A stretch of 64,000 nucleotides of DNA from contig JACQVA010000127.1 of NCBI GenBank assembly GCA_016210005.1, positions 835 to 64,834 on the forward strand, written 5' to 3'. The DNA is from Deltaproteobacteria bacterium (GTDB taxonomy: Bacteria; Desulfobacterota; Binatia; HRBIN30; JACQVA1). Made by a program: the position numbers and the translations under genes. Shown here piece after piece: positions 15,662 through 59,982 of the stretch (position 1 is its first letter; every line of letters begins with the position of its first letter). The notes below the pieces were generated by a model. It had not been told where the DNA came from. It did no database searches and saw nothing but the letters and a program-made list of their open reading frames with translations.

Positions 15662-15779
15662 AGCGAGCACGGCCACGCTACGAGCCCGCGCCGCCGAAGT
15701 CAATTTGGCCGCGGTCTAATCGGCTTTTGACTGGCTCGCGGCCCGCCGCTACAACCGGCACCAGCCGAGGAGGGCACGC

Positions 15780-23772: not shown

Positions 23773-23945
23773 CTGGTCAGGTCGCCCGCGGGTCAGGCGC
23801 GCGGTAACAAAGAGAGAGTGGGCACTACTGCCCAGCCGCCGAATTTTGTGCTATGAGAGCGCCACAGTTGATCAGTTGGCATCGTGCTGTACCCGTAAAC
23901 GAGGCGTGCCCGGGAGGGTGTGCTTGGCAGAAAGGAGTAGCGACG

Positions 23946-31616: not shown

Positions 31617-31644
31617 CCCCAACCCCCACGAAGAGGAGTCCACC

Positions 31645-32178: not shown

Positions 32179-32187
32179 GGCGCGGCC

Positions 32188-32649
32188 ATGAAAATCAGCG
32201 ACATCTTGCCCGAGGCGCTGGTCTTTCCGTCCCTGCGCGCCCAAACCAAGGCCGAAGTGGTGCGGGAGTTGGCCGAGCAACTGGCCGCCCAGTACCCCGA
32301 AATCGATCCCAACCGCCTCATCGAGGTGCTCTGGGAGCGCGAACGCTTGGGCAGTACCGCCATCGGCGACGGCATCGCTATCCCCCACGGCAAACTGCCC
32401 GGCCTGCGCCAGGTGCTCGGGGCCTTCGGCCGCCACGTGCAGGGCGTCGATTTCCAGTCGCTGGATGGACGTCCAACGCAGCTGTTCTTTCTGCTGGTGG
32501 CCCCGGACGACTCCGTGGGCCAGCACCTCAAAGCCTTGGCGCGGGTCTCGCGCTTGCTCAAGGATCGCGCCTTTCGCGCCCGCCTGCTGGCCGCCCCGGA
32601 TCGCGCCGAACTGTGCCGCATCATCCGCGAGGAAGATGAACGACTCTAG
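32188..32649 (+). CDS. ptsN: PTS-Ntr EIIA component PtsN
   Basis: The EIIA-2 fold is shown by GIAIPHGKL with its phospho-His. Confidence 0.85.
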   Translation: MKISDILPEALVFPSLRAQTKAEVVRELAEQLAAQYPEIDPNRLIEVLWERERLGSTAIGDGIAIPHGKLPGLRQVLGAFGRHVQGVDFQSLDGRPTQLFFLLVAPDDSVGQHLKALARVSRLLKDRAFRARLLAAPDRAELCRIIREEDERL

Positions 32650-32709
32650 CGTCAGAACCGCCGCCGCCGGCGGGATGAACCTCCAGCGCTCTTCGGGCGG
32701 GAACCCGCC

Positions 32710-33576
32710 GTGAAACGGATCCTGCGTGTCGTCATCGTGACCGGGATGGCCGGCGCCGGCAAGAGCACGGCCATCCATGTGCTGGAGGACCTGGGCTTCT
32801 ATTGCATCGACAACCTGCCGGTGGTGCTGCTGCCGCGGTTCTTGGAGCTGTGTGAGACCGCCACGGAAGGCATCGGCCGGGTGGCGCTCGGCATCGACTT
32901 GCGCGAGCGCGAGTTCCTGCACGGCTACCCGGCGGTCCTCGACGACCTGCGCCGGCAAGGCCGGCGGGTGGAAGTGCTGTTTCTTGATGCCTCGGACGCG
33001 GTGCTGGTGCAGCGTTTCGGCGAGACCCGACGGCCGCATCCGCTCGCGGGCGATGCCGGCCCGCTGGCCGGCATCGCCCGCGAGCGCGAGCAAATCGCCG
33101 GCTTGCGCGAGCGCGCCGATCGCATCGTCGACACCAGCGCCTTGACCATTCATCAGCTGCGGGCCGAACTCACGCGTGGTTATGCCGCCGGACAGATCGA
33201 AGGCACGCTGCGCTTGCTCCTGACCTCGTTCGGCTTCAAGTTCGGGCTGCCCGCCGACGCCGAAATGGTCTTCGATACCCGCTTTGTGACCAACCCCTAC
33301 TTCGTCGACGAATTGCGTGACCGCGACGGTCTCGACGCGGCGGTGGCGCAGTTCGTGCTCGATCGGGACGAGACTCGCCAGTTGCTCGCCGGCATTACCG
33401 GCTTGCTCGAACTGGTCTTTCCGCTCTACCAGCGCGACGGCAAGTCCTCGCTGGCAGTGGCTGTGGGCTGCACCGGCGGCCGCCACCGCTCGGTGGTCAT
33501 CGTCGAACGGCTGGCGCAGCTCCTGGCCGCCAAGGGCCTGGCCACCCAGGTGCGCCACCGCGACCTCGGACGCTGA
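32710..33576 (+). CDS. rapZ: RNase adapter protein RapZ (YhbJ), P-loop NTPase
   Basis: IVTGMAGAGKSTA is the Walker A motif. CIDNLP and the conserved C-terminal CTGGRHRS are present. Confidence 0.9.
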   Translation: MKRILRVVIVTGMAGAGKSTAIHVLEDLGFYCIDNLPVVLLPRFLELCETATEGIGRVALGIDLREREFLHGYPAVLDDLRRQGRRVEVLFLDASDAVLVQRFGETRRPHPLAGDAGPLAGIAREREQIAGLRERADRIVDTSALTIHQLRAELTRGYAAGQIEGTLRLLLTSFGFKFGLPADAEMVFDTRFVTNPYFVDELRDRDGLDAAVAQFVLDRDETRQLLAGITGLLELVFPLYQRDGKSSLAVAVGCTGGRHRSVVIVERLAQLLAAKGLATQVRHRDLGR

Positions 33577-40289: not shown

Positions 40290-41080
40290 GCCGCCACCGC
40301 GCCAGCCGTCACCGCGACGGCGAGAAAGCGTTCGATCATCGCATTCACCTGTTCCGGCACTTCCAGCTGGTTGAAATGGCCGGCGCCCACCGTCTGGCCG
40401 GTGAGCACGTGCGGGCAGAGCGCTCGCAAGTGTGCCAGGTCGACGAAAGGCGGATGGGCCGACAGCGCCAGCCACGGCACCCGGCAACTAGTGGCGGCGC
40501 TGGTGTAATCATAACTGGCGATGTGCTCGAAGGCCGAGGCCATGACGTGTTGCGGGGCAGAAGACATCAGGTCAACGATTCGCGCCTTCCGCTGCGCGTC
40601 GTCGCTGGGTAAGAACAACATTGAGGAGACGAACTGCCGCTGTGCCTCGCGGTACTCGGGCGTGCGCAACATGGCGGCGATCGCCGCCATGCTCTCCCTG
40701 GCAGCCGCCAGCGGCGGAATCGGCGAATCGACGCTCACGATCGCGGCGGGCAGCTGCGGGTAGCGGCTGGACAACTCCAACGCGATCACGCCCCCCATGC
40801 TGTGGCCGATCACCACCGGCCGCTCCAGCCCCAGCTGATCGCAGAGCCAGACCAGGTCATCGGCAAATGCCGTCATGCTGTAATGCTGTTGCGGTTTGTC
40901 GCTGCGGCCGTGGCCGCGCAGATCAACTGCCACCACGCGGTGACGCCGGCGAAAATGCTCGAACTGGGGAGCGAAGAAACTGTGATCACAGGTCCACCCG
41001 TGCACCAGCAGCAGCGGCGGGCGACCGCCCCCGGCTTCCTCGAAAAACAACCGCACGCCGTCGTGATCGATTAGGGGCAT
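40286..41080 (-). CDS. Alpha/beta-hydrolase fold protein
   Basis: LLLVHGWTCDHSFF, GHSMGG and DLRGHGRSD. Confidence 0.75.
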   Translation of the reverse strand: MPLIDHDGVRLFFEEAGGGRPPLLLVHGWTCDHSFFAPQFEHFRRRHRVVAVDLRGHGRSDKPQQHYSMTAFADDLVWLCDQLGLERPVVIGHSMGGVIALELSSRYPQLPAAIVSVDSPIPPLAAARESMAAIAAMLRTPEYREAQRQFVSSMLFLPSDDAQRKARIVDLMSSAPQHVMASAFEHIASYDYTSAATSCRVPWLALSAHPPFVDLAHLRALCPHVLTGQTVGAGHFNQLEVPEQVNAMIERFLAVAVTAGAVAA

Positions 41081-42522: not shown

Positions 42523-44712
42523 TCAGAACTCGCCGACCGCGCCGCGCGGCAAATCGACGTGAAACGTGGCCCCGTGCGGTTGCACCGGGGCGAAGGTGAG
42601 GTTGCCGCCGTGGGCTTGCACCATCTGGCGCGCCACCGCCAAGCCCAAGCCGGTGCCGTGCGGCTTGGTGGTCTCGAACAGCCGAAACAGCTGCACCGAC
42701 GCGGGCAGACCGGGACCGGTATCGCTCACCGAGATGCGCACCCGGTCCTGGGCCAGCGCGCTGACCTCGATGCTGACGCAGCCGGGGCCTTGCTCGATCG
42801 CTTCCAGCGCGTTCTTGACCAGGTTGTCCAGCACCCGGCGCAGCTTGTCTTCGTCGGCTACCAGGCTGGCAGCAGCACGATCAGCGGCCCTGGTCGCCAG
42901 CGTGATACCACGGGCTGCCGCCAGCGGCTGCCACAGGTCGATCACCTCCTGCACGAATCGCGGCACCGCAATGGTCTTCAGCTCCAAGCGCTGCTCGCGG
43001 GCGAAGTCGCGGAACTCGGCGATCAGCGTGTTCAAACGGTGAGCTTCAGCCACAATCCGTTCGGCCGCGGCGCGCACCGTGCTGACGGGCCGATCGGGAT
43101 CACGGCTGGCCCGGCGCGCGATCAGTTGCGCTTGCATCGAGACGCCCGCCAGCGGGTTTCCCAGATCATGAATGATTTGCGCCGTGATCGCGCCGATGTC
43201 GGCCAGCCGCTCGCGTTGCTGCACCAGCCGCTGACTGACGGCCAACTCCGCTTCCGCCCGCTTGCGGACAATGAAATCGCCGATCTGCTTGCCGAGCGAC
43301 TCCAGCGTATCGAGCGTCTCGCGGCTGCACCTCCGCAAGTCGCGGCGGTAAAACGCCATCACCCCAATCACCTCATGGCCGTTGCCGAGCGGGAAGGCGC
43401 AGGCATGGGGCAAGCCCAACTTGATGACTATGGACGAGCGGTGAAAGCCTTCATCCGCCGTGACGTCGGGGATGCAGACGGCGCGGCCGCTGGCCCACAC
43501 CCGGCCAGGCAACCCGCCGGCGATCTGGAAGACGCTCCGGCTGCTGGCGGCTTGGAATTCCGTGGCGTCCAGCGACGGTACGTGCCACATGCCATCCCAG
43601 CGCAATTCCTGGCTCGCGGCGTCAAGGTGCCACAGCTCCCCCAACTGCCATCCCAGCCCCTCGCAGATCGCTTGCAGCAACGCAGGGGTAGCCTCCGCCA
43701 GCGATGGCGAGGCCGCCAACACCCGCGTCACCGCGTACTGCGCACTCAACCGCTGCGCCGCGCAGAGGCGCTCCGTGATGTCGTGTCCCACCGCCAGCAC
43801 GCCGAGGACGCTGCCACCGGGGTCTGTGAGCGTCTTGGTGTACCACTCGATCTCGCGTTCGTGGCCGTGCTTGGTGACAATCGGATTGATATTGCCTTGC
43901 ACCCGGGCGCCGCTGACCGCGGTCTCGAATAACTCCCGGATGCGCTGGCGGTCGCGCTGCGGCAAGAAGGTCGCAAACCAGTCGTGGCCTTGCACCTCCG
44001 ACAAGCTATAGCCGGAAACCTCCTCGAAGAAGGGGTTGAAGCGAACGATCCGGCCACGACTATCGAGCACCAACACGATCACCTGGGCGGTCTCAATCAA
44101 GCTCTCGGCGAAGTCGCGCTCGCGCCGCAGCGCCTCCTCGACGCGGATGCGTTCACTGACATCCCGCACCAGCCAGCGCACGCCCGTCAGGCGGCCGCTG
44201 GCATCGCTCACGGCGGTAGCAACCAAAGCGGCGTCAAAGCCAGAGCCATCGTCACTGGTCGGCTGCAGGCGAACGATCCACTCTTGTCCGCCCTTGTCCT
44301 GGCCTTTCTCCAAGCGCGATAGCTGCTGGCGAAATACCGGCCGCTGCTCCGGGCACACGAAAACCGCCAACGGCTTGCGCTGCAACGAGTCACGGCGCCG
44401 ATTGAGGAGTCGCGCGGCCGCGCGGTTGGCTTCCACAATCGTGCCCGCGGCGTCAGTTAGCAGGTGGGCATCGGGAGCAAGCTCGAACAGCTCCTGGTAA
44501 CGCCGGCATCGCGCTTCGAGTGCCTGCCGCGCGGCCAGCAATTCCTTACTCTCGGCTTGCGCCTCCTCCTCGGCACTGCGCAGCTTCTCCAGCGTCTCGG
44601 CCAGCGCCGCCATCGTGTTTGCGGGCAGAGCCGTACGCCGCTGGCTGCGTCCCAGCCGCTCCAACTGCACTCGCGCGGCTTTGATCTTTGCGCCGAAACG
44701 AAGCTGCGCCAT
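42523..44712 (-). CDS. Sensor histidine kinase with coiled-coil, PAS and GAF domains (start uncertain; the ORF could extend to 44808)
   Basis: The H-box is ITAQIIHDLGNPLAG. There are PAS-like segments. HATPase motifs are NLVKNALEAI, SDTGPGL and GTGLGLAV. Confidence 0.8.
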   Translation of the reverse strand: MAQLRFGAKIKAARVQLERLGRSQRRTALPANTMAALAETLEKLRSAEEEAQAESKELLAARQALEARCRRYQELFELAPDAHLLTDAAGTIVEANRAAARLLNRRRDSLQRKPLAVFVCPEQRPVFRQQLSRLEKGQDKGGQEWIVRLQPTSDDGSGFDAALVATAVSDASGRLTGVRWLVRDVSERIRVEEALRRERDFAESLIETAQVIVLVLDSRGRIVRFNPFFEEVSGYSLSEVQGHDWFATFLPQRDRQRIRELFETAVSGARVQGNINPIVTKHGHEREIEWYTKTLTDPGGSVLGVLAVGHDITERLCAAQRLSAQYAVTRVLAASPSLAEATPALLQAICEGLGWQLGELWHLDAASQELRWDGMWHVPSLDATEFQAASSRSVFQIAGGLPGRVWASGRAVCIPDVTADEGFHRSSIVIKLGLPHACAFPLGNGHEVIGVMAFYRRDLRRCSRETLDTLESLGKQIGDFIVRKRAEAELAVSQRLVQQRERLADIGAITAQIIHDLGNPLAGVSMQAQLIARRASRDPDRPVSTVRAAAERIVAEAHRLNTLIAEFRDFAREQRLELKTIAVPRFVQEVIDLWQPLAAARGITLATRAADRAAASLVADEDKLRRVLDNLVKNALEAIEQGPGCVSIEVSALAQDRVRISVSDTGPGLPASVQLFRLFETTKPHGTGLGLAVARQMVQAHGGNLTFAPVQPHGATFHVDLPRGAVGEF

Positions 44713-44865
44713 GCGCGCCACCTGCCGATTCACGCCGGGGCGAGATCCCCGGTTACGAGGCAGTTGACCACGTTCGCCCACGGCAAACAAGCGACGGGCG
44801 AAGTGCAAACCGCCGCCGGGCTTCGCGCCGCCGGCCGTTCCGTGCTAAGGGACGGTGCGCTTTCT

Positions 44866-47828: not shown

Positions 47829-48740
47829 CTACGCCGGCACGATGGTCGTGCCGGTGGTGCCGCTGAGAGCGCCTTCGATAGCGCCGAGGGTGGCGATAAC
47901 CGCGGGCCGCGCGGTGGCGCTGGCGAATTGCACTGCGCTCTCCACCTTGGGCGCCATCGAGCCGGGCGCAAAGACGTGATGCGCCAGACGCTCGCGGGCT
48001 TGTGCCACCGTCATCCGATGAATTGCCTGCTGATCGCTGGCACCGAATTGATCAAAGGCGTGCGACACGTCGGTCACGAACAGCAGACACTCGGCTCGTA
48101 AGGCTACCGCCAGGAGCGCGGCCACCCAATCCTTGTCGATCACCGCCGGTTGTGCCCGGCGCACCCCGGCAGTCTGCGCCAGCGCTACGCCGCCACCGCC
48201 GCCAGCCACAACGTGACCAGTGGCCAACAGTGTGCGAATCGCCTCGGCTTCGATCACCGCCAACGGGCGCGGCGACGCCACCACCCGGCGCCAGCCGCGG
48301 CCGTCGGGTGTCGGCAACGAGGCTACGCCGGCGGGCTTACTACTCAGTACCGCCCCCACCGGCTTGGTGGGCTGCGCAAAGGCCGGGTCGCCCGCGTCGA
48401 CCAGCACCCGAGTGATTATCGCTACGCCGGCGGCCCCGCCCAGCTCGTGATCTAATGCTTCCGCCAGCAAGTAGCCGATCTCCCCTTGCGTCTGCGCCAC
48501 GTGCACATCGAGGCGCTCGGAATCGCCGAAGCCCGGGGCGGCAAGCAGGCGGCCTACTTGCGGGCCGTTGCCGTGGACAACGAGCAAGCGCCAGCCGCGC
48601 CGCGCCAGGCCGGCCAGCTCACTAACCGCGCGTTCGATGACCTCGCGCTCGGTGGCAAATGATAGATCCCCGGCCGGCGGCGTGATGGCATTGCCGCCGA
48701 GCGCCACAACCATCAGCGGTGAGCTGGCCGCGACACTCAT
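47829..48740 (-). CDS. arcC: Carbamate kinase (amino-acid kinase family)
   Basis: MVVALGGNA and VVHGNGPQVG are signatures. The C-terminal region AVIDKD...FVTDV is present. Confidence 0.75.
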   Translation of the reverse strand: MSVAASSPLMVVALGGNAITPPAGDLSFATEREVIERAVSELAGLARRGWRLLVVHGNGPQVGRLLAAPGFGDSERLDVHVAQTQGEIGYLLAEALDHELGGAAGVAIITRVLVDAGDPAFAQPTKPVGAVLSSKPAGVASLPTPDGRGWRRVVASPRPLAVIEAEAIRTLLATGHVVAGGGGGVALAQTAGVRRAQPAVIDKDWVAALLAVALRAECLLFVTDVSHAFDQFGASDQQAIHRMTVAQARERLAHHVFAPGSMAPKVESAVQFASATARPAVIATLGAIEGALSGTTGTTIVPA

Positions 48741-50092
48741 GGAATCACAGCGCCGAACCGGGCAGCAAGGAAGTCGTCGACGATGGTACCCAGGGTCGGC
48801 TCGCCCGCGTCGGCGTACTCGTAGCGGGCGCGCACCACCGGCTTGTCGAGCGCGATCAGCGCTGCCAAGTCAATCGGCGTGGCCGCCACCACCACCTCGG
48901 CCGCCGCCGCGTTGATCGTCTGGCGCAGGGCCGCGAGCTGCTCGGTGTTGTAACCGACCGCAGGCAGGACCGGCCCGATGTGGGGATACTGCCCGAAGAC
49001 GGCCCGCAAGCTGGCAGCAGCGAACGGCCGCGGATCGACGATCGCCGCCGCCCCCACCGCCATCGCCGCGCGGTACCCAGCCCCGTGCGGCAGGCCCCCG
49101 TGCGTGATCGTCGGCCCATCCTCGACCACCAGCACCCGGCGCCCGCGGACGGCATCGGGATCATCCAAGCGCACCGGCGAAGCCGCCCGCACAATGGCGG
49201 CGGACGCGTTGACGGCGCGGATGTCGTTGACCACCTGCTCGACCTGTGCCGGCGTAGCCGCGTCCACTTTGTTCACCACCGCCACGTCGGCCATGCGCAA
49301 CACCGCCTCACCCGGGTGATACGCTGCCGCCTGTCCCGGCCGCAGTGCATCGGTCATCGCAATCAGCAGGCTCGGGCGAACGAACGGAAAATCATTGTTG
49401 CCGCCGTCCCAGACGATGATGTCCGCCTCGCGTTGCGCCTGCGCGACAATGGCGGCGTAATCCACGCCGGCGAAGACAACGTTGCCGGCCTCCAAGTGCG
49501 GCTCATACTCTTCGCGCTCCTCGGCCGTGCACCGAGCCGCGTCGAGATCGGCGGCGGTGGCAAAGCGCTGCACCCCTTCGCGCTCCAAATCGCCGTACGG
49601 CATCGGATGGCGCAGGACGGCCACCCGCAGGCCACGGCTGCGCAAGCGGCGGCCCAGCCAGCGCGCGGTCTGCGACTTGCCGCAGCCGGTGCGGATGGCA
49701 CAGACCGCGATCACCGGTACGCTCGCCAGCAACATGGTGCGCTGGGGTCCGAGCAAAACGAAGTCGGCGCCGCAGGCGAGCGCCCGCGCGGCCAGGTGCA
49801 TCACGTGCGCGTGCGACACGTCGCTGTAAGCGAACACGACTTGATCGATGCGCTCGCGCCGGCAGATAGCTTCCAGTTCGGTTTCGTCCGCAATCGGGAT
49901 GCCCGCCGGATAGCGGGCACCGGCCAGCGCTGCCGGATAACGGCGGCCACTGATGCCGGGAATCTGCGCGGCGGTAAACGCCGCCACCGTGACCGCCGGA
50001 TCGTCGCGGTAAACGACGTTGAAATTGTGGAAGTCGCGCCCGGCGGCACCGAGGATGAGCACACGGATCGGCGTGGCCACGGTCACCTGCAC
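48737..50092 (-). CDS. Cyclic-2,3-diphosphoglycerate-synthetase-like / DUF1611-type protein (Rossmann-like N-domain plus P-loop domain)
   Basis: The N-terminus RVLILGAAGRDFHNFNVV is Rossmann-like. The P-loop is IRTGCGKSQTARWLG. A 4-nt overlap couples it to the carbamate kinase. Confidence 0.4.
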   Translation of the reverse strand: MQVTVATPIRVLILGAAGRDFHNFNVVYRDDPAVTVAAFTAAQIPGISGRRYPAALAGARYPAGIPIADETELEAICRRERIDQVVFAYSDVSHAHVMHLAARALACGADFVLLGPQRTMLLASVPVIAVCAIRTGCGKSQTARWLGRRLRSRGLRVAVLRHPMPYGDLEREGVQRFATAADLDAARCTAEEREEYEPHLEAGNVVFAGVDYAAIVAQAQREADIIVWDGGNNDFPFVRPSLLIAMTDALRPGQAAAYHPGEAVLRMADVAVVNKVDAATPAQVEQVVNDIRAVNASAAIVRAASPVRLDDPDAVRGRRVLVVEDGPTITHGGLPHGAGYRAAMAVGAAAIVDPRPFAAASLRAVFGQYPHIGPVLPAVGYNTEQLAALRQTINAAAAEVVVAATPIDLAALIALDKPVVRARYEYADAGEPTLGTIVDDFLAARFGAVIP

Positions 50093-50901: not shown

Positions 50902-52845
50902 ATGATGCCCCGGCAAGGGGGAGTGATGGAACGGATCTGTGGCCCGGAGCGACCGGGAGGACAAGGTCTCGATGCGCAACAGGAGGAGTCCGGCAACCGC
51001 GCGATCGTGGCGCTGCTTACCGACCCACAAGTGCGGGAGCAGACGGATTTGGTGATCACTTGTCGTGACCAAGCCTACGAGGTGTGGGCGCGGCGCGGTA
51101 TGATCCGCTTCCAGCGCGTATTAGCCGAGGGGCGCTACCATTACCGCATCGTCGAGCAGATCGGTGTCAACCCGATCGCGGACCAGCGCCACACGCTCCT
51201 GGCCACCTGCGCCGAAGAGCTGCAAGCCGCCGGCACCGGCGGACATCGTACCGCCGACGCCAATCAGGCATTCATCGAGCCGGAGCAAGCCAGCTATCCG
51301 CACGCCTACGAGCGCATCGCGCAGTTGTTCGACAGCCCGAACGCTCCCGACCTGGTGATCAACCCCAAGCCGTACGCCTTCGGCTTGCAGCTCGGGCAAC
51401 ATGGCGCACTCGACGTCGTGCAATCGCGCGCCCCGCTGGCCTTTGCCGGCCCCGGGGTTCGCCCGGGCCTGTACGAGAGCGCGCCCCGCCACGTGGATAT
51501 CGCCCCCACCATCTGCCGCGCGCTGGGCTTCCCGGCCATTGACGGGGCAAATGAGACCGGGCGCACCGCCGCTGAGCGCGGCGTCGCCCCCGACGTCTAC
51601 CTGAAGCGGCAGGACGGCAACGTGCTCGACGAGGTCCTCGATCCGGGCCAGCGCCCCGCGCGGGTCTATGTCGTGATCTTTGACGGGCTCAGCAACAGCG
51701 AGCTGCAACACCTGCTCGACACCGACGACCACGCCATTACCAACCTGCGGCGGATCTTGGACCGCAGCGCGCGTTTCCGTTACGGCTCGACGGTAAACTT
51801 CCCGTCAATCACCTGGCCGAGCCACAGCACGCTGCTCACCGGGGCCTGGTGCGGGCACCACGACATCGTCAACCCGAGCTACTACGAGCGGGCCACGCGC
51901 CGGGCGCTCACGCCCCAAGGCCAGGGGCTGCAAACCGAGGGCTACCTTGGCAGCGGGGTCGAAACTCTGTACGAGGCATTCCATCGCGTGCTCGGCCCAC
52001 AGGCGTTCACGGCCAATATTCACGAGCCGCAGGGGCGCGGCGCCGACCACGCCGCCCTCGAACGGCGCATCGTCGGCCCGCGCGACCGCCTCAAGGCGCT
52101 GACGGCGGAGTTCAACGAAACCATCAGCCCGCGCTATCTCGCCGACGGCCACGAGGGCGTGCACCGCGAGGCGGCGCTGGACGCGCGCGGCATGGCTCAG
52201 GCGATGGTACTGTTCGACAATCCGGCGCAAGCACCGCCGCTGTTGCTGGTGCACGAGTTCTCGGTCACTGACGGCGCCGGGCATGACTACGGCCCGCACG
52301 GCGCCGGGCTGCGCACGGCCGTCGCCCAGGCCGACAAATGGCTCGGCCAAGTGCTCGACTTGCTCGCCGCCAAGGACCTGCTCGATTCCACGCTGTTCGT
52401 CTTCACCGCCGATCACGGCATGGCCGCGCAGAATGCCGGCTTGGCCGCTAACCCGGCGCGGCATCTCGAACGCATCGGCATGAAGACGATTACCGGCGAG
52501 CCGATGGTCTGGCTGCGCGACCTGGCGGTCGAAGTCGAGCCCGCGCCCGACGGCCGCACCGCCCGCATCACTGTGCTCGACAACGATCTTGACCCGGCCG
52601 GCGAACACCCGCCGGTCGGCGGTGCCGAAATTCTTGTGCACGCGCATCCTGAAACCCTGCTGGCGCGGTTGCAGACCGGCCCGGAGGGCGTCGCGGGCTT
52701 GGCGACGCCGGCGGATGTCAGGCCTGCCGCCATAGTCCTCTCCGTCCGCCATCCGGACTTCAACCCGCGCCACCTACGGTTGGACGGCAGCGCGCTCGTC
52801 ATCGACCCGCGCCGCCAGTTGTACGAACGCGAAGTGGCGCGCTGA
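50902..52845 (+). CDS. Alkaline-phosphatase superfamily enzyme (type I phosphodiesterase / nucleotide pyrophosphatase-like)
   Basis: VIFDGLSNSEL...NFPSITWPSHSTLLTGAWCGHHDI is a metal-site region. The later segments VHEFSVTDGAGHDYGPHG and FTADHGM are also present. Confidence 0.55.
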   Translation: MMPRQGGVMERICGPERPGGQGLDAQQEESGNRAIVALLTDPQVREQTDLVITCRDQAYEVWARRGMIRFQRVLAEGRYHYRIVEQIGVNPIADQRHTLLATCAEELQAAGTGGHRTADANQAFIEPEQASYPHAYERIAQLFDSPNAPDLVINPKPYAFGLQLGQHGALDVVQSRAPLAFAGPGVRPGLYESAPRHVDIAPTICRALGFPAIDGANETGRTAAERGVAPDVYLKRQDGNVLDEVLDPGQRPARVYVVIFDGLSNSELQHLLDTDDHAITNLRRILDRSARFRYGSTVNFPSITWPSHSTLLTGAWCGHHDIVNPSYYERATRRALTPQGQGLQTEGYLGSGVETLYEAFHRVLGPQAFTANIHEPQGRGADHAALERRIVGPRDRLKALTAEFNETISPRYLADGHEGVHREAALDARGMAQAMVLFDNPAQAPPLLLVHEFSVTDGAGHDYGPHGAGLRTAVAQADKWLGQVLDLLAAKDLLDSTLFVFTADHGMAAQNAGLAANPARHLERIGMKTITGEPMVWLRDLAVEVEPAPDGRTARITVLDNDLDPAGEHPPVGGAEILVHAHPETLLARLQTGPEGVAGLATPADVRPAAIVLSVRHPDFNPRHLRLDGSALVIDPRRQLYEREVAR

Positions 52846-52871: not shown

Positions 52872-53309
52872 TCAATGCCGCGGCGCCAGCGTGTGTTTGT
52901 GCTCAGTGATCGTGCAATGCTGCAAACACACCTTCCCGCCGTCCTGCTTCTTCGCCCGCAGGACCGTTCGCTTCACCGGGCGGGACAAGAACTCATACTT
53001 CAAGTTGGGCTCGTGCGCGCCGGGCGGCAATGCCAACGAGGAGTTCTCCTTCACTACCTCCCAGTTCTTGTCGACCAACGTCAGGCTGGCAATGCGGCTG
53101 CCGAGGTCGACTTCGCACGGCCTCGCGCGTGGCTTGTCGTCCGGCTTTCGCTTGAAACGGCTCTGGTATCCGCCGCGCAGCAGCTGCCGCCAGGTTTCAT
53201 TGAGACGGCCGATCTCGCCGTTACCGGTTGCGGCCACCCGCGGGCTGGCTTGGTGTGTTTGGCGCCGCGGCGCTGGCTTGCGCTTATTGTCCCTCTTGCT
53301 CCGAGGCAT
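52872..53309 (-). CDS. Small basic hypothetical protein with a C-terminal Cys/His cluster; the last gene of the novel operon
   Basis: The N-terminus is Arg/Lys-rich (MPRSKRDNKRKPAPRRQ). The C-terminus is CLQHCTITEHKH. There is no family assignment. Confidence 0.3.
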   Translation of the reverse strand: MPRSKRDNKRKPAPRRQTHQASPRVAATGNGEIGRLNETWRQLLRGGYQSRFKRKPDDKPRARPCEVDLGSRIASLTLVDKNWEVVKENSSLALPPGAHEPNLKYEFLSRPVKRTVLRAKKQDGGKVCLQHCTITEHKHTLAPRH

Positions 53310-53329: not shown

Positions 53330-55645
53330 CTATTGCTTAGCCAGTCGTTGTTCGAGCCCGAGCGCTTGTAGATCAGGGTCCGGGCGCAACAGCGCGCGCG
53401 GCACCTCGCGCAGATCGAGAATGTCGGCGAAGTGGGGCAAGTCGAGCGCGCGCAGTTGCTCGTCCAGCTCGACGAGGAGACGCAGGTCCGCCGGCTCATA
53501 GTCCTCCGGATTGGCGACCGAGCAGCGTTCACCCTCGAAGAGGTCGGCATCGAGGATGGCGTTGACGGCGTAGCGCGCGGACTCGTTGGCGGCTTCCATG
53601 CTGGTCAGCCGGGTGTGGGTTTGCATCAGCACTCCGGCGAGCACCAGCTTGTTGAAATGCACCCGGTAATTGCCCGGCTGGCCCGGGCGGCGGCGGTATT
53701 GGCCCGGGCGGTTGGTCAGGTAGGGCATGCGGTTCTTGTTCGGCAGATTGGGTCGCGCGCTACCGGGCCGGCCGAAGACGATACCGTCATCGAGATGGTA
53801 GAAGACCGGGTCGGGCAAGTGCCGGGGCTGCAAGCCCTGGGCGGCGAGCTGTTTTTCCGCGATCGAGCGGATCTGGGCCCAGGCTTCGCGGGCGATCTCA
53901 TCGCGGGTGCATTCCCAGGCGCAACGGCCGTTACCACCGGGATTCGACCAGTCGGAGATGTCGACCGAGAGCACGCCGCGGTAGCCGCTCCACCAGCCGC
54001 GCTTCTCCATCCAGAACTGCGGCTGCGCGATGGCCGACAGGCGCCAGGGCGAATCGGGGTAGACCGAGTGGCCTTCCAAAATGCGGATGTCACTGTTGAA
54101 GTAGTACTGGATGCCGCTCATATGGGCGTAGCCGCCGCCGCTGTCGGCGGCCGTGCGCACGCCCAGGGGGAAGCTGCGCAGGCGCTCGAAGTCTTCCCCG
54201 TACAGCTCGGGGTAATCGCGCGCCAAGCCCTGGAGCACGTGCGCCGGCAGGGCGAGGACGTAGTAGTCACGGATCAGCGCGGCCGCGTGCTCCTCCTCTT
54301 GCGCTTTGCCGCGGGGCCGCTGCGCGCCGTCTTCTTGCTCGCGCTCGACGATCACCATCGGCCACACCTGGCCGTCGAAGAACTCGAAGCCGTCGAGGAC
54401 ACCGCGCCGGAATTCGACTCCTTGGGCCTCCAGATAACGCCGCCAGTGATCAAACCACACTTGGCTGGCAGGGCCGTTGAGCGTACCGTCGACGCGGGCC
54501 GCGGGGTCGAACTGGTCGTGCAGCATCTGCGCGGCGATGGTGCCGTAGGTGCGGGCATCGCACTGCCGCGCGGTCATGGCCAAGGCGGTCTGAGTGGTGG
54601 TCTCGATATATTTCTGCGCCCCCGGGCTGAACTGCTCGGCCTCGAGGAAGTTCCACCACGACATCTGCTCGTAGTCGGCGCGGCGCGCCTTACAGCTGGT
54701 CATGTACTTGAACATCTTGAGCTGAAAGCGCGCCACGTCACTGAGCGTGAGCCCCATGGCCTTGAGCAGGTCGCAGAGCTCGTCGAAGAACGCCTGCACC
54801 GACGGCGTCGTGCGGCGGCGAAATGCCGAGGGCGCCTTGGCCGTGCTGGTGCCGAGCCCCTGGAACGGCGTCGGCACGACGTTGTCGAGCACCGTGCGGG
54901 GGCTCTCCTCGAACATCGGCCGGTCTTCCTTGGCCACGGGAGTGCGCCGCATGCTGTCGAAGAGGTTGCGGTAGAACGACGGGAAGAAGCGGAAACCGTG
55001 CTCGCCGGGAACCCAGTCTTCGACGATGTGGAAGGAGACGAAGTCGCGCTCCGCGTCCGGCCGGCTCCAGTCGTCGGCAAACCCGAGCCCCATGGCTACC
55101 GGCTTGAGCTCGAGCACGCGGCCACTCTTCTTCAGCTCCGGGCTGAGCAACTTGCGCAGCTGTTCCTTGACCGCCAGCGCGCGTTGCCAATCGATGCGCT
55201 CCGGCTTGCGGTAGTTCTCGTACGGGACGGCCCCGCGTTGGTCGCAGTGGCCGCGCACCTCGACCAGCTTTACGGCCTCGGCTTCGAGTAGCTCCTTGAC
55301 CACGGCCTGCAAGGCGTCGCTGGCGGCCGCGGGCTCGGCAAAGCGCGTGGAGTTCTTGCGGAACTTGATCCTAGCGTCCGGCAACAGCCGCAGTTGCTGC
55401 GTCGAGAACATGGGGCCGGCCGCCAGCGGTCGGTCCACCCGCTCCCACTGGGTGTGAGCCATGCCGCCGACGCCGCAGGCGACGCCGTCGATGCGCTCGA
55501 AGATCGAGGGCTTGCGCATCTCGTAGACCTCGACCTTGTACCCGCGCTCGACCAGCTCGTGGGCCACGGTCAAGCCGGTGATACCAGCGCCGAAAACAGC
55601 CACCTCCTTGGGCTTGCTCAGGTAATCGCTAAGACTGTTGCTCAT
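53330..55645 (-). CDS. 771-aa flavin amine-oxidase-fold protein (NAD/FAD Rossmann N-terminus, amine-oxidase C-terminal closure) with an embedded OmpA-like motif
   Basis: The N-terminus reads KEVAVFGAGITGLTVAHELVERGYKVEVYE. The internal motif reads RIKFRKNSTRFAEPAAASDALQAVVKELLEAEAVKLVEVRGHCDQRGAVPYENYR...RALAVKEQL; compare the OmpA C-domain pattern F-x-SA-L-x8-L-x13-GHTD-x2-G-x3-YN-x2-LS-x2-RA-x2-V. The C-terminus reads LVLAGVLMQTHTRLTSMEAANESARYAVNAIL. Confidence 0.6.
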   Translation of the reverse strand: MSNSLSDYLSKPKEVAVFGAGITGLTVAHELVERGYKVEVYEMRKPSIFERIDGVACGVGGMAHTQWERVDRPLAAGPMFSTQQLRLLPDARIKFRKNSTRFAEPAAASDALQAVVKELLEAEAVKLVEVRGHCDQRGAVPYENYRKPERIDWQRALAVKEQLRKLLSPELKKSGRVLELKPVAMGLGFADDWSRPDAERDFVSFHIVEDWVPGEHGFRFFPSFYRNLFDSMRRTPVAKEDRPMFEESPRTVLDNVVPTPFQGLGTSTAKAPSAFRRRTTPSVQAFFDELCDLLKAMGLTLSDVARFQLKMFKYMTSCKARRADYEQMSWWNFLEAEQFSPGAQKYIETTTQTALAMTARQCDARTYGTIAAQMLHDQFDPAARVDGTLNGPASQVWFDHWRRYLEAQGVEFRRGVLDGFEFFDGQVWPMVIVEREQEDGAQRPRGKAQEEEHAAALIRDYYVLALPAHVLQGLARDYPELYGEDFERLRSFPLGVRTAADSGGGYAHMSGIQYYFNSDIRILEGHSVYPDSPWRLSAIAQPQFWMEKRGWWSGYRGVLSVDISDWSNPGGNGRCAWECTRDEIAREAWAQIRSIAEKQLAAQGLQPRHLPDPVFYHLDDGIVFGRPGSARPNLPNKNRMPYLTNRPGQYRRRPGQPGNYRVHFNKLVLAGVLMQTHTRLTSMEAANESARYAVNAILDADLFEGERCSVANPEDYEPADLRLLVELDEQLRALDLPHFADILDLREVPRALLRPDPDLQALGLEQRLAKQ

Positions 55646-56073
55646 ATTGCCTCCTCTCGTGGCGCGCCGGAGTTCAGGCGGTATGACTGCAGTAGCTGTG
55701 GAAACGACGGTGCGCGCACCGCCCCGTGCAGGTACGCCATCAGACCGTCGTAGAAGCCGAGCACGTCGTCGGGGTGGCCGCGCAACTGTAACTGCTCCGC
55801 GAGCACGGCCTCGAGCAGCGTGGATTGCGCGTCAACCAGCGCCAGAATCGCCGCGCGCGTGGTCCGCACGCTCAGCGCGGGCCGCTGGTGCGCAATCACG
55901 GTGAGAGCCGCGGCGCGCTCGAACCGCAAGCATACGGTGTCGTCATCGACCGTGATGGCAACCGCCCGCGGCGCCAAGCGCCGGCACATCTCCTCGTAGG
56001 CGTGCGGCAGCTCGCGGCGCAGCACGGCGAAGGACTCGGCCAAGAAGTCGGAGAAGCGCTTCTCAGTAGTCAC
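55642..56073 (-). CDS. Hypothetical protein, possibly SCP2-like fold
   Basis: AVAITVDDDTVCLRF...ILALVDAQSTLLEAVLAEQLQLRGHPDDVLGFYDGL loosely fits the SCP2 pattern. There are 4-nt overlaps on both sides. Confidence 0.35.
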   Translation of the reverse strand: MTTEKRFSDFLAESFAVLRRELPHAYEEMCRRLAPRAVAITVDDDTVCLRFERAAALTVIAHQRPALSVRTTRAAILALVDAQSTLLEAVLAEQLQLRGHPDDVLGFYDGLMAYLHGAVRAPSFPQLLQSYRLNSGAPREEAI

Positions 56074-57130
56074 GGATAAACTCCAGAATCGAGCGGCCGC
56101 AAAACTCCACCCGTTCGCCGTCGATGCAGCCCTGCACGCTGGCGCGCGCCGAGACTTCGTTGAAGATCGTCACCCCCAACCTGGTCTCGCTCGGAATCAC
56201 CACTTGCGCCATATCACTGCCGGTGCAGCGGCAGGTGAGCCAATCGCCGCGGGCGCGCGCCCGCACCTCGTACGAGCGCGGCACATCGGTCGAGCACTCG
56301 GGCGCCACCAGCGCCATCACGCGCGGCACCTTGAACACCTGCGCCGGCCGCAGGTGCACCAGCTCGGCCTCGGCCTCGAGGTCGCACTCGCGAAACAGCG
56401 CCAGCAAGTGCGCGCCGCGCCACAGCAGCAGCTGCTGCGCCAACGCGCGGGTGCGCGCCCGATCGGTCAGGCGCACGAAGGTGAGGCACCACGGCACCGT
56501 CTCGCTCTCCGGCAGGACAAAGCCCCACTCCCACGACACGTCGTGACCCCACAGAAAGTGACCCCAGTTGTGGTCGTGGTACGCCGGCGCACCGTCGAGC
56601 TGGTAGCGCCGCCCCGCCACCGTGACCACGCCGCGGACTTGCAGCCGCGGCACCACCACCCAGTTCAGCGGCGGCCCGTCGAGCATGGGAATACTGGGCA
56701 CATAAGCCGGCTGCGTCACCGGCGCCAGTGCCAGCTCGACGGTGATCGGCCGTTCTCGCAGAGCAACCGCAATCAGGAAGCGGCCGTCGTGAAACCGCAG
56801 CCGGTTGCCGCCGAAGGTCAGGTCGATGCGCCCGCCCCGCGAAGTCGCTTCCGCCATGGCGAACTGCTCGACGTCGCCGTCCCAGCCGCGCTCGCGCAGC
56901 AGCAAGACCAGGCGCGGAAATTCCGCCCCCTGCAGCGCCCGCGGCCGCGCATCGTCGCAGTAACTGAAGTTGACCAGCAGATCGAGCTCGGCGCTGAGGA
57001 CGACGAAGTGTTGCCACTCCTTGTGATGGCGCGCTCCGCCGAGGGCGAAGGGCGATCGCCGGACGAAGTCGATGCGCTCGATGGCTTGCCCGAAATCGCC
57101 GAGCGCCGGCGCGGCTGCCGGCACCGTCAT
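56063..57130 (-). CDS. Hypothetical 355-aa protein (conserved YHDHNWGHFLWGHDVSWEWGF segment)
   Basis: The frame is open, and an ATGA overlap links it to the upstream small ORF. The composition is Trp-rich and beta-strand-like. There is no confident family assignment. Carotenoid 1,2-hydratase (CrtC), lipocalin-like, is one low-confidence guess. Confidence 0.45.
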   Translation of the reverse strand: MTVPAAAPALGDFGQAIERIDFVRRSPFALGGARHHKEWQHFVVLSAELDLLVNFSYCDDARPRALQGAEFPRLVLLLRERGWDGDVEQFAMAEATSRGGRIDLTFGGNRLRFHDGRFLIAVALRERPITVELALAPVTQPAYVPSIPMLDGPPLNWVVVPRLQVRGVVTVAGRRYQLDGAPAYHDHNWGHFLWGHDVSWEWGFVLPESETVPWCLTFVRLTDRARTRALAQQLLLWRGAHLLALFRECDLEAEAELVHLRPAQVFKVPRVMALVAPECSTDVPRSYEVRARARGDWLTCRCTGSDMAQVVIPSETRLGVTIFNEVSARASVQGCIDGERVEFCGRSILEFIRDY

Positions 57131-57444
57131 CAGACTAGCACCCCGCGGAGTTCTAGGCGGCGCGCCGGCTTGGGCGGCTCCTCGGGCGACTGAGTAGCGG
57201 AGCGGGCCGCGCTCAGATGCGTCATCACTTGTCGTGACAGAGCGATCAAGCCGAGAGCGGCGTCGACGACCGGGGCAGGCTCAGCGCCGGCGGCGGCGCC
57301 GGCCGACGGCCGGCCATAGTCGTCCGCCAAGCAATCGAGTTGCCGGCAGAAGGACACCAGGCCGAGCGCGACCTGCAGGAACATGTTGCGGTCGTCGAAC
57401 TCGTCGCCGAGTTTATGCAGTGCCGGAGCCATTGCTATTGGCAT
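57130..57444 (-). CDS. Hypothetical small protein (104 aa at most; start uncertain)
   Basis: The stop codon overlaps the ATG of the downstream 355-aa gene (ATGA). Confidence 0.3.
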   Translation of the reverse strand: MPIAMAPALHKLGDEFDDRNMFLQVALGLVSFCRQLDCLADDYGRPSAGAAAGAEPAPVVDAALGLIALSRQVMTHLSAARSATQSPEEPPKPARRLELRGVLV

Positions 57445-57829
57445 CGCCGCGCGCGAATTCGAGCAGCGCGCGATCGAGATCTGGGCGACTGATGGCCTGC
57501 ACTACGGCATCGATGATCGCGCTCGGCATCACCGCCTCCGGGCTGTCTTCGAGCGCGTTGAGCATCGAGCCCTCCCACAACGCCCGCCCGCGCCGGATCA
57601 GTTCCGAGCCGGCCAGCTGCGCCTGCCAGCGCCGGCCTTCCGGTGTTTGCGCGAAGCGGCGCCCTTCCGCCACCAACGCGCGAAACGCCGCCTGTGCCGC
57701 CGCCGGGTGCTTTAGCATCAGCAGCGCCGCGGCCCGCAGCACGGTGGCGAGGGAATCCTCGACCGGCAACAACAGGTGCGGGGCGTCTTCCCAGCGCTCA
57801 GCCTGCGGCCCACACCCAGGCTGCGTCAC
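57413..57829 (-). CDS. Hypothetical helical protein (about 139 aa), GTG start overlapping the upstream stop (GTGA)
   Basis: The in-frame GTG at 57829 overlaps the stop of the 217-aa gene. The track's 202-aa ORF is its over-extended form. Confidence 0.3.
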   Translation of the reverse strand: MTQPGCGPQAERWEDAPHLLLPVEDSLATVLRAAALLMLKHPAAAQAAFRALVAEGRRFAQTPEGRRWQAQLAGSELIRRGRALWEGSMLNALEDSPEAVMPSAIIDAVVQAISRPDLDRALLEFARGDANSNGSGTA

Positions 57830-58479
57830 TGTAACACCTCGACTTCCAAGCTCAGGCGGCCGACCACCTTGGCCCCGGCGCAGACGTTCGCTTCGCCCCG
57901 ATAGCAACCCGCGCCGGCGCGCTGATCGGGCACGACCACGAACTGAAAGCGTGCGCTCTGGCGGGGCTCCAGCTCGTTGTAGCCCGCTACCGCCCGGCCT
58001 TGGTCGTCGATACGTTCGCAACTGACCATGGCCGGCAGCACGAGACCGCCGGCCTCTTGGCGCAGCACGGGGACCGTAAAGGAGACTTGCGCGCGCTGCG
58101 CCAGCGGGTTCTCGATGACCAAGCGTGCCGTCGCGCGCTCACCCGGCTTTGCCGCCGCCTTCAGGCTGAGTTGCGCCGGCGAGGGCGCATGACGGCCGAG
58201 ACGAACGAGAGTATCGGCTATGAAGTCGAAATGCTTGCCGCTGAGCTTCAGCCATTGCTCGTAGTTCAGCAGCGATAGCCGTGTGACGTCGAACAACAGG
58301 TCCGAAGCTTCGCTCTGTACCGACGGCGGCAAGGCGTAGGGTGCGGCCTGGCCGCTTTGCGCCAGCGGCGAGCGCTGCTTCAGTTCGTGAATCAAGCGTA
58401 GCTGCTGCACTGCGGTCGCGAGTGCCGCCGCCCGCGCCCGTTTCAGCAGTTCGGCGTCGTCCCGTGGTTCGTCTGTCAT
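57826..58479 (-). CDS. Hypothetical 217-aa protein
   Basis: The ORF starts 12 nt after the stop of the polyprenyl synthase gene. The C-terminal half is beta-rich. There is no family assignment. Confidence 0.4.
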   Translation of the reverse strand: MTDEPRDDAELLKRARAAALATAVQQLRLIHELKQRSPLAQSGQAAPYALPPSVQSEASDLLFDVTRLSLLNYEQWLKLSGKHFDFIADTLVRLGRHAPSPAQLSLKAAAKPGERATARLVIENPLAQRAQVSFTVPVLRQEAGGLVLPAMVSCERIDDQGRAVAGYNELEPRQSARFQFVVVPDQRAGAGCYRGEANVCAGAKVVGRLSLEVEVLQ

Positions 58480-58491: not shown

Positions 58492-59648
58492 TTACCATTC
58501 CCGGCTGACCGCGAAGTCGACAAGACCGCGCAAGAAGTCGCGATGCAGTGACGGAGTCAGCCACTCGGCCTTGGCCAGCGCCTTACTGGCCTTGAGCGCG
58601 AAGCGTCGCGCCACGCTGCGGGCGTAGTCGACGCTGCCGCGGCGTTTAATCAAGTTGAGCAGGTAGTCGATTTCTTTCTGCGTCTTGACGCCGGCGCCGT
58701 TGCCGGCGCGCGCCACGGCGTCTTCGATCACCCGCCTAGCCGCAGGCCTGAGCTGAGCGCGCGCCTGCAAGTCGTCCAAAACCGCGGCCAGCTGCTGCGC
58801 CGTGCCGGGCGCCGGCAACGGCCGGCGCTTGCCGAGGATGCGCCAGGCGCGCTTGCGCTCCGTGTCGCTGGCGGTGCGCAGGGCATGCATTAGGATGAGC
58901 GTATGCTTGCCCTCCCACAGGTCGCCGGCGATCTCTTTGCCGTAGACTTCACCCTCGCCGGTGAGGTTGAGAACGTCGTCTTGAATCTGGAAAGCGACGC
59001 CGAGCAAGCCGGCGAAGCGGCGTAAGGCGGCGCTATGTTCGGGGGTCGCCCCGGCGACGATGCCGCCGATGACTGTGGGCGCGATGAAGGTGTACCAACT
59101 GGTCTTCTTGAACACCATGCGGAGGTAGTCGCTATCGGCCAGCTGCCACTGGTGACTGCGGATCCAGTCCAGTTCGATGGCCTGCCCTTCGGTGGATTCG
59201 CGGGCCATGCGCGCCACGACTTGCAGGATGCGCAGGGCTTTGCCCAGCCCGAGCAGGCGCATGTTGTCGAGCAGCGGCTCCAGCGCCAGGGCCAGCATCG
59301 CGTCGCCGACGTTGACCGCTATCGGCATCCCATGGGACCAGTGCAGCGTCGGCCGGCCGCGCCGATTCTCCGAGCCGTCCTCGACGTCGTCGTGGATCAG
59401 GAAAGCATTATGATACAGCTCCAGGATCGCGGCCGAGCGCAGCACCGCCTCCAGCGATCCGCCGAGCGCGCGGCAGGTGGCGATACACAGCGCCGGGCGC
59501 AAGGCCTTGGCCTCGCGCAGCGGGTAGTCGAGTACCAGCCCGTAGAGCACCGCATGACAGCGGCTGCTCTTCGGGATGATCTCGCGGATCTCGTGCAGCG
59601 TCAGCTGGCGACAGTCGGTCAAGTAGGCATCCAACTCGGCTGAATCCA
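58492..59648 (-). CDS. Polyprenyl diphosphate synthase (trans-isoprenyl diphosphate synthase; GGPP-synthase-like) with a C-terminal extension of about 90 aa
   Basis: The FARM motif is FLIHDDVEDGSENRRGRPT. The SARM motif FQIQDDVLNLTG reads DDVLN, with the last Asp replaced by Asn. The conserved KT, GQ and KxxD blocks are present. The start is taken at MDSAELD. Confidence 0.8.
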
Positions 59649-59982
59649 TCCTGCTTTCGTCCGTGCGGCCGGGGCGGTGTAGTCTCGCCGCTGTTACTGA
59701 ACTAATCGTTTCGCTGCGTAGCACAAACGCAACACACGGCTCAAGCGCAAAAGACCAAGCCGTAAACCCGCACCGGGCAGCATCCAGGCAATTCTGCAAC
59801 CTAGCGTGCCACGCGCCTCATCGCGGCCGCGTTGCGCGCCACGTCCAAGCACTCGCCTATCCCGCGCGACCGCTCGACTCGGCTACTGACTACGCCGCGC
59901 AGACAGGGTAATGTGAGCCATGGTTTTCTTGCACATCATCAGGCGCGAACCACTTGCGGGCTTTCGCCCGGTTGGGGGCGCA

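Follow-up and report, generated by a model that had tools for sequence, protein, structure and literature searches.

A desaturase-like flavoprotein with a nested OmpA-like domain and its conserved operon in a Binatia genome

Introduction

The window analyzed here is a 64,000-nt stretch of contig JACQVA010000127.1 (positions 835 to 64,834) from a Deltaproteobacteria bacterium assigned to the Binatia. On its minus strand lies a gene for a flavoprotein of 771 amino acids (aa), which an earlier reading of the sequence, referred to below as the original prediction, had described as an amine-oxidase-fold flavoprotein carrying an internal OmpA-like motif. Our results indicate that this protein almost certainly is a desaturase-like flavoprotein with a nested OmpA-like domain. 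Its gene comes last among the well-conserved ones of an operon that starts with a polyprenyl diphosphate synthase gene and recurs in Binatia, Myxococcota and Mycobacterium. The features of the flavoprotein gene, in which FAD stands for flavin adenine dinucleotide, PDS for phytoene desaturase and HpnE for hydroxysqualene dehydroxylase, are as follows.

53330..55645, minus strand: flavoprotein gene, the last of the operon to be well conserved; PDS/HpnE-like core enclosing a nested OmpA-like domain
55511..55609, minus strand: N-terminal dinucleotide-binding beta-alpha-beta unit, residues 13-45, with GAGITG at 19-24 and E42 ending strand 2
55016-55432, minus strand: entire insertion relative to insert-less relatives, residues ~72-210, as defined by alignment
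55022..55378, minus strand: OmpA-like domain, residues ~90-208, of the order beta-alpha-beta-alpha-beta-beta, with GHCD at 132-135 and QRALAV at 154-159
54971..55009, minus strand: PGEHGFRFFPSFY motif, residues 213-225, directly after the insert, returning strand of the FAD-domain hairpin
53552..53647, minus strand: C-terminal FAD closure LVLAG...TSMEAANESARYAVNAIL, residues 667-698

Reading frame and core of the flavoprotein

As predicted, the interval 53330-55645 holds a single uninterrupted reading frame of 771 aa with an ATG start; it lies on the minus strand, and a plus-strand reading was rejected because stops interrupt the frame. Its start codon and the stop codon of the neighbor upstream (55642..56073) overlap, which implies an operon. 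In the NCBI collection, the identical entry is named 'NAD(P)-binding protein [Deltaproteobacteria bacterium]' and comes from a metagenome-assembled genome (MAG; protein P0001). All peptides quoted in the original prediction were located in the translation, namely GAGITG (residues 19-24), RIKFRK (92-97), GHCD (132-135), QRALAV (154-159) and LVLAG...AVNAIL (667-698). The noted excess of about 300 aa over the family was likewise found; about 140 aa of it form a single clean insertion in comparison with insert-less relatives, and the remainder is distributed over a C-terminal tail and smaller loops.

The dinucleotide-binding fold proposed for the N-terminus is recognized by Pfam (NAD_binding_8, 1.8e-6; DAO, 5.7e-8), and its residues G19, G21, G24, E30, R34 and G35 are invariant across 74 homologues. 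The window protein has the FAD-binding beta-alpha-beta arrangement with GxGxxG and an acidic residue closing strand 2. At the other end, the proposed FAD closure occupies residues 667-698 and contains seven residues that are invariant in the 74 homologues (G671, T676, R679, E684, N687, E688 and A693). The most conserved block of the family is PGEHGFRFFPSFY, with E215, G217, R219, P222 and Y225 invariant in the same alignment, and it was found in every insert-less relative. A scan of one genome per species with two peptide patterns, one of which was the C-terminal closure, recovered 582 relatives.

Single-sequence searches of Pfam, NCBIfam and the PDB gave matches confined to the Rossmann motif, and a family profile gave no flavoprotein match in the PDB beyond this motif. 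The Amino_oxidase model PF01593 scored 13.7 bits against a cut-off of 19.8, the NCBIfam models for PDS and HpnE align to the first 30-45 residues only, and no full-length match of the window protein to a curated hidden Markov model (HMM; TIGR02731 for PDS, TIGR03467 for HpnE, and PF01593) was obtained. The original prediction had named a full-length alignment to a characterized enzyme family as an observation that would speak against it; among the curated HMMs, none was found.

A connection to named families is provided by two insert-less relatives, one haloarchaeal and one mycobacterial. Such relatives align with the NCBIfam HpnE model at 4.5e-26 (residues 13-341, model positions 1-311 of 430) and with the 15-cis-phytoene desaturase model at 6e-9 and 4e-12, all scores being below the equivalog cut-offs. 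The full-length structure model of the flavoprotein has a predicted template modeling score (pTM) of 0.92, and in this model the two-domain fold, consisting of an FAD and a substrate domain, superposes on a solved PDS/HpnE-type member. The best structural match of the predicted model is PDS, ahead by 6 Z units. The core belongs, as a divergent member, to the amine-oxidase superfamily branch that comprises PDS, zeta-carotene desaturase and HpnE, and it stands outside any curated enzyme family. While the FAD motifs at both ends agree with the amine-oxidase-fold flavoprotein of the original prediction, its closest relatives among enzymes are not amine oxidases proper but phytoene desaturase and isoprenoid oxidoreductases of the HpnE type.

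The OmpA-like insert

For the inserted segment, the original prediction had recognized an OmpA pattern and had given the lack of a significant OmpA-family hit as a ground for refutation. Pfam sets the gathering score of PF00691 at 27.2 bits, and the window protein stays below it both at full length (13.8 bits, E=0.077) and with the insert alone (17.7 bits, E=0.0047). Taken by itself, the window protein formally gives the refuting result.

The evidence for the domain comes from the orthologues and from the fold. When the segment equivalent to residues 80-212 was excised from 41 homologues, PF00691 was detected at E<0.01 in 32 of the 41 inserts, with a best value of 2.9e-11, and two orthologues exceed the gathering score even at full length (P0003, 31.5 bits; P0024, 37.5 bits). 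A profile of the 41 inserts found YiaD (3.7e-11), Pal (5.7e-11) and OmpA (3.2e-10) among the PDB sequences, as well as MotB, YfiB and OprF. This search returned 92 chains at E<=1, and the best 60 of these are all of the OmpA family or of MotB/MotY type except 7f4v_aB, which is labeled photosystem I PsaB. In a library of 1.84 billion representatives, this profile matched 63,023 proteins at E<=0.001, with multi-repeat OmpA-type proteins at the top. A word-indexed search for homologues of the flavoprotein yielded about 400 at E<=0.001, many of which have a precomputed PF00691 match.

Structure prediction led to the same family. An AlphaFold2 model of the insert alone (predicted local distance difference test, pLDDT, 92; pTM 0.87) shows the order beta-alpha-beta-alpha-beta-beta, so that the check proposed in the original prediction, folding of the insert as an alpha/beta OmpA-like domain, came out in its favor. 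Within the full model, strands were assigned to residues 93-95, 127-134, 179-187 and 202-207 and helices to residues 105-121 and 151-174. The top 50 Foldseek matches of the insert model in the PDB are all MotB, PomB, Pal, OmpA, TagL, YfiB or ZorB-type domains, with TM values of 0.5-0.67, probabilities of ~1 and modest E-values (7e-4 and weaker).

A chance or artefactual origin of the similarity was rejected on the strength of the insert profile, the PF00691 matches in 32 of 41 inserts, the Foldseek results and the search that returned 63,023 proteins. The OmpA assignment of the window protein stands because the orthologue profiles and the fold rescue its sub-threshold match; judged by these two, the internal segment of ~140 aa is a genuine OmpA-like domain. 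As to novelty, full-text literature searches found neither the family nor the operon described, in line with the view that the architecture is undescribed, but databases already flag some members through precomputed Pfam matches and the source names 'OmpA family protein' and 'NAD(P)-binding protein'.

Insertion site and its variation among homologues

The insert follows the GG motif (GGMAHTQW), precedes the invariant PGEHGFRFFP block and appears as a single clean gap of ~140 aa against insert-less relatives, in which the same stretch is a hairpin of ~20 residues. In the full model, the last strand of the insert (202-207) runs directly into the returning strand (209-214). The pLDDT is 90-97 through the insert save for the loop 141-150 (pLDDT 78), which we take to be the counterpart of the canonical ligand-binding loop. 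The high pTM and the pLDDT of 90-97 across the insert point to its rigid packing against the rest of the enzyme.

The survey of homologues called for in the original prediction was carried out by HMM searches of all retrieved loci and revealed that the insert can be kept, decayed, absent, or replaced by WD40 repeats or a helical segment. The short hairpin is present in all relatives of ~550 aa outside the operon, which were found in Nocardia, Kofleriaceae, Solirubrobacteraceae, Ilumatobacteraceae and haloarchaea. Among operon-linked proteins, the hairpin site measures only 24-44 aa in Mycobacterium and several Myxococcales, and orthologues without the insert are encoded in loci L021, L022, L025, L036, L045, L072, L074 and L083. 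WD40 repeats occupy the site in L018 (7445-11854, ~725 aa; PF00400, 46.5 bits) and in L020 (9599-13108, ~300 aa; 35.7 bits), and in L027 a helical segment of ~280 aa without a Pfam match is found there. In a Kofleriaceae-like, operon-linked group, the insert has decayed and can still be linked to the OmpA-like profile (hhalign 83%, E 8.7e-6). An HMM of the insert recognizes 9 of the 31 loci with operon genes, which comprise 29 operon loci, the window's own contig (L001) and L008. The insert is an accessory that is optional or swappable among orthologues.

In a rough neighbor-joining tree of the core, the OmpA-type inserts all fall into one sub-clade. The OmpA-like domain may have been acquired once, in this sub-clade, at the tip of the FAD-domain beta-hairpin, and the other interaction modules, WD40 and helical, would have been gained independently at the same hairpin.

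The operon

In the window, the operon genes are co-directional and tightly spaced, with the flavoprotein gene closing the set. The other genes are the following.

58492..59649, minus strand: g1, trans-type polyprenyl diphosphate synthase (PF00348, 3.1e-59), first operon gene
57826..58479, minus strand: g2, 217 aa, function unknown, most variable operon member, without Pfam or PDB match
57413..57829, minus strand: g3, 138 aa, function unknown, with a conserved AAQAAFxALVAEGRRFAxTPEGRRW block, called gene in L001
57130..57432, minus strand: g4, ~100 aa, function unknown, called gene in L001 and kept in most operon loci
56063..57130, minus strand: g5, 355 aa, unannotated family with an invariant YHDHNWG block and a weak DUF2804/tocopherol cyclase likeness
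55642..56073, minus strand: g6, 143 aa, weakly SCP2-like, possible lipid carrier, its stop overlapping the flavoprotein start
52872..53309, minus strand: g8, 145 aa, downstream of the flavoprotein gene, poorly conserved, operon membership doubtful

An identical gene order was found in six loci, the window and five independent ones, among which Polyangium, Sorangium and Binatia are represented. HMMs derived from them showed that g1, g3, g5, g6 and the flavoprotein gene co-occur in 29 loci besides the window, from Binatia, Myxococcota and Mycobacterium; three of these are Mycobacterium genomes, whose flavoprotein is without the insert. Taken singly, g6 is present in 29, g3 in 28 and g1 in 26-28 of the 29 operon loci. 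A small gene takes the position of g8 in five of the six same-order loci, and its sequences align poorly.

For g1, the best NCBIfam matches to short-chain and geranylgeranyl diphosphate synthase models are all below the cut-offs, and an assignment to the polyprenyl transferase model for family 2 encapsulin cargo, which was its best NCBIfam match, was rejected at 190 bits against a cut-off of 450. The public gene call starts at an ATG (59649), and the open reading frame (ORF) is extendable by 50 codons upstream to a TTG at 59799; g1 orthologues range from 350 to 449 aa and vary in their N-terminal extension.

Orthologues of g2, g3 and g4 matched nothing in Pfam. In g5 orthologues, DUF2804 was seen in six of six and Tocopherol_cycl in four of six, in each case sub-threshold (E>=0.0068) and on the YHDHNWG block. 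Homologues of g5 number 404, and among the best 120 listed, none has a Pfam domain and the sole source name is 'hypothetical protein'. Aromatic and acidic residues are invariant at many positions of the family (EW.HF; YHDHNWG..W.....W.WG). For g6 orthologues, SCP2 (PF02036) was matched in four of six (best 8.1e-4) and Alkyl_sulf_C in two of six, all below threshold. Profile searches of g2, g3, g5 and g6 against PDB sequences gave no significant match; similarities to phosphatidylethanolamine-binding protein and vinculin were at chance level and were dismissed. The defense-system models of PADLOC returned nothing relevant for any operon protein.

Apart from g1, g3, g5, g6 and the flavoprotein gene, clustering of the ORFs in the 29 operon loci brought out a kinase as the only conserved neighbor, and it revealed no conserved squalene or phytoene synthase, cyclase or prenyltransferase nearby. 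The kinase is a protein of ~1,250-1,300 aa combining a Ser/Thr kinase with an AAA_16 (STAND-type) nucleoside triphosphatase and adjoins the operon in 17 of the 29 loci. An example is encoded at L002 12572-16345, and others lie beside the flavoprotein gene in L003-L006 and 12 further loci. Sigma-54 activators are often found near it. The window has no such protein and instead contains a convergent gene of the Phosphodiest family (50902-52845, plus strand). The surrounding operon is of more interest than the architecture of the flavoprotein.

An apparent second, partial operon copy was observed in the same MAG (L087 1-4199, Logan SRR12113401). It comprises g2 (225 aa), g3 (138 aa), g4 (134 aa) and a g5 of 356 aa that shares 59% identity with its counterpart in the window, followed on the other strand by genes of the HIT family and for HU; g6 and the flavoprotein gene are absent from that contig. 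Protein P0165 of this copy has the locus tag HY699_13895, and g5 of the window is HY699_12105.

Cellular location and peptidoglycan-binding residues

OmpA-like domains are usually extracytoplasmic, and the original prediction had called the insert a peptidoglycan-binding module. Inspection of the window protein gave no sign of the location beside the murein that is customary for such domains. Its Rossmann strand begins at residue 14 and its GxGxxG at residue 19, and in 61 of the 74 homologues the latter starts within the first 24 residues, a position so early that no room is left for a signal peptide. Neither a signal peptide nor a twin-arginine motif was seen on inspection of the window flavoprotein, and the eight operon proteins contain no membrane-spanning or signal-like segment (maximum 19-residue Kyte-Doolittle mean, 1.62). 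A different N-terminus was noticed outside the operon, where an insert-less relative of ~585 aa from Nocardia nova NBRC 15556 (L076 9884-11638) begins with MAEKYGAVSRRTVLRGVAGAGVITAGAM. This start resembles a twin-arginine translocation (Tat) signal (SRRTVL), so that its branch may be exported and the operon-linked branch not.

The diaminopimelic acid (DAP) of peptidoglycan is bound in Pal and OmpA structures through two residues, the Asp of the GHTD motif and the Arg of LSxxRA. We assume that D135 and R155 of the window protein occupy these positions. A regular expression for GH[TCAS]D finds the motif in only few homologues, and alignment columns were counted instead; here the Asp position is kept in 17 of 74 homologues and the Arg position in 61. 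The loop between the two is ~5 residues longer than the canonical one. Further conserved positions of the insert are F95 (64/74), G132 (62/74), D152 (56/74), A156 (65/74) and R200 (55/74).

Because signal and membrane-spanning segments are missing from the operon proteins and the Asp is retained in so few homologues, their sequences make peptidoglycan anchoring by the insert unlikely. The function that the original prediction attached to the module is improbable on the same grounds and also in view of orthologues from the same operon in which the insert is absent or replaced by WD40 repeats.

Proposed function and alternatives

We propose that the flavoprotein is a cytoplasmic oxidoreductase of the phytoene-desaturase/HpnE structural type, with FAD as its predicted cofactor, and the last enzyme encoded in the operon headed by the trans-polyprenyl diphosphate synthase g1. 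Most likely, it would desaturate or otherwise oxidize or reduce an isoprenoid lipid derived from the g1 product. The SCP2-like g6 might hand this lipid over to the enzyme, and g5, in analogy to the CrtC/CrtD pair, might act beside it as a hydratase or cyclase. The OmpA-like insert would lie outside catalysis, as a surface module repurposed in the cytoplasm for docking or ligand binding. An isoprenoid substrate is, in our estimate, probable. For a role of the insert that does not involve murein, we see an even chance or slightly better, and the complete package of a cytoplasmic FAD isoprenoid oxidoreductase with the insert as a non-murein docking or ligand-binding module is to be favored by a little.

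A broader picture can be offered only tentatively. The operon might represent a widespread and unstudied cytoplasmic pathway for isoprenoid lipids, made up of a polyprenyl synthase, four to five proteins without a family and a PDS-like flavoenzyme whose hairpin acts as a 'socket', frequently with the STAND-type Ser/Thr kinase as a neighbor, with the OmpA-like fold recruited for intracellular docking or ligand sensing and a new lipid class as the product. Such a socket would have been filled lineage by lineage with OmpA-like, WD40 or helical interaction modules.

Several observations weigh against the proposed cytoplasmic isoprenoid oxidoreductase. The sequence matches of the window protein to PDS, HpnE and Amino_oxidase are restricted to the N-terminal Rossmann motif, and no enzyme that makes a C30 or C40 substrate, of the squalene or phytoene synthase type, is conserved beside the operon. 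The assignments of g5 and g6 were taken from sub-threshold matches. The cytoplasmic location was called by sequence inspection and a hydropathy scan only, and the tree behind the single acquisition of the insert is a distance tree without support values. Finally, the window protein keeps D135, R155 and a GxxxYxN-like loop, and a peptidoglycan fragment may be the ligand of this particular member.

Among the alternatives, a purely structural insert fares best, though we consider it unlikely. The insert would then be an evolutionary relic that stabilizes the hairpin or mediates homo-oligomerization, with no ligand or partner. The decay of the OmpA motifs across the clade, where the insert HMM detects only 9 of 31 loci while hhalign still ties the decayed forms to the OmpA-like insert, is what such a relic would leave, and other lineages dispense with the insert altogether. 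However, several surface-independent positions stay conserved (F95, G132, D152, R155, A156 and R200), and the fact that WD40 and helical modules were gained independently at this site suggests selection for an interaction surface.

Somewhat less probable still is that the insert continues to bind the DAP stem peptide, in this case on cytoplasmic precursors such as UDP-MurNAc-pentapeptide or lipid I/II. It could then tether or regulate the flavoenzyme at sites of precursor synthesis, or the enzyme could act on a prenyl-linked precursor. The window protein retains both residues of the binding pair as well as a GHTDxxGxxxYN-like loop, 61 of 74 homologues have the Arg, a prenyl diphosphate is made by the operon, and the fold matches of the insert include 2AIZ, whose entry title names H. 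influenzae Pal with a UDP-N-acetylmuramyl ligand. On the other side, just 17 of 74 homologues retain the Asp, the loop is ~5 residues longer than canonical and has the lowest confidence within the insert (pLDDT 78), and orthologues from the same operon do without the insert or have WD40 repeats. Moreover, the operon synthase is of the trans type (PF00348), unlike the cis-prenyltransferase by which the carrier lipid of the cell wall is made.

The weakest alternative, an exported flavin amine oxidase that is anchored to peptidoglycan and whose periplasmic substrate would be an amine, for instance a polyamine or an amino acid, can draw on the usual extracytoplasmic place of OmpA-like domains and on the Tat-like signal (SRRTVL) of the insert-less Nocardia nova relative, but is highly improbable given a Rossmann strand from residue 14 without signal peptide or twin-arginine motif, operon partners without export signal, a lead of 6 Z units for PDS among the structural matches, an operon context of polyprenyl synthase and SCP2-like protein, and just 13.7 bits for Pfam Amino_oxidase.

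Comparison with known systems

Desaturases of the plant and cyanobacterial type, PDS (rice PDS, PDB 5MOG) and zeta-carotene desaturase, share 17% sequence identity with the window protein. The PDS model TIGR02731 is reached by the latter only through insert-less intermediates. Compared with PDS, the window protein is ~300 aa longer, contains the nested OmpA-like domain and has no phytoene synthase in its neighborhood.

HpnE (TIGR03467) is the best named HMM for the insert-less relatives and the top NCBIfam match of the window protein, there at the Rossmann motif only. Common to both is an FAD enzyme type, predicted as such for the window protein, that is encoded together with genes for building isoprenoid chains. 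On the other hand, the insert-less relatives score 92 bits and the window protein 29 bits against an equivalog cut-off of 283, synthases of the HpnC/HpnD type are absent near the operon, and HpnE itself has no inserted domain. The flavoprotein would work most like PDS or HpnE, yet was filed as neither because the curated sequence models failed and the usual partner genes were not found nearby.

With the OmpA_C, Pal and MotB domains (PF00691), the insert shares the fold and profile-level homology, and D135 and R155 of the window protein would correspond to the Asp/Arg pair that binds DAP in Pal and OmpA. The insert differs from them in being nested within another domain and optional, in the missing export signal, in the poor retention of the Asp (17/74) and in the longer loop. 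The 1,2-hydratase CrtC and the 3,4-desaturase CrtD of purple bacteria provide an analogy only, in that g5, which may be hydratase- or cyclase-like, lies two genes upstream of a desaturase-like flavoprotein in a putative isoprenoid operon. The histone demethylases LSD1 and LSD2 are among the fold matches and set a precedent for large modules, Tower or other, inserted in this flavoprotein fold; they differ in insertion point, module type and their eukaryotic chromatin role, and have no specific relationship to the window protein.

If the proposed reading is true, a cytoplasmic enzyme with an integrated OmpA-like domain would be a counter-example to the use of this domain as a marker of the envelope or of peptidoglycan binding, and would call for caution with the annotation 'OmpA family protein' for such flavoproteins. 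The flavoprotein would mark a seven-gene operon that Binatia, Myxococcota and Mycobacterium have conserved and that includes five products without an assigned family, and this operon would be a defined target in the search for a new bacterial isoprenoid lipid and its enzymes. A hairpin that hosts OmpA-like, WD40 and helical modules would also be an experiment of nature on how the amine-oxidase/PDS fold takes up inserted domains, and its variation could inform how enzymes of this kind are localized or regulated.

Other features of the window

Five further long ORFs of 451-744 aa in the window have no Pfam match at E<=1e-5, namely 1077-3041 (plus), 23853-25772 (plus), 31492-33558 (minus), 38253-40487 (minus) and 48737-50092 (minus). 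The window has ~66% G+C, and some of the five may be shadow ORFs. In addition, the window encodes three sensor histidine kinases, at 3782-5638 (plus), 11435-13990 (plus) and 42523-44808 (minus); two of them have PAS and GAF domains, one of these two being of the hybrid type, with a receiver domain. Further genes code for a PMT_2 glycosyltransferase (8226-9983) and for a protein of the AsmA family (14015-15703).

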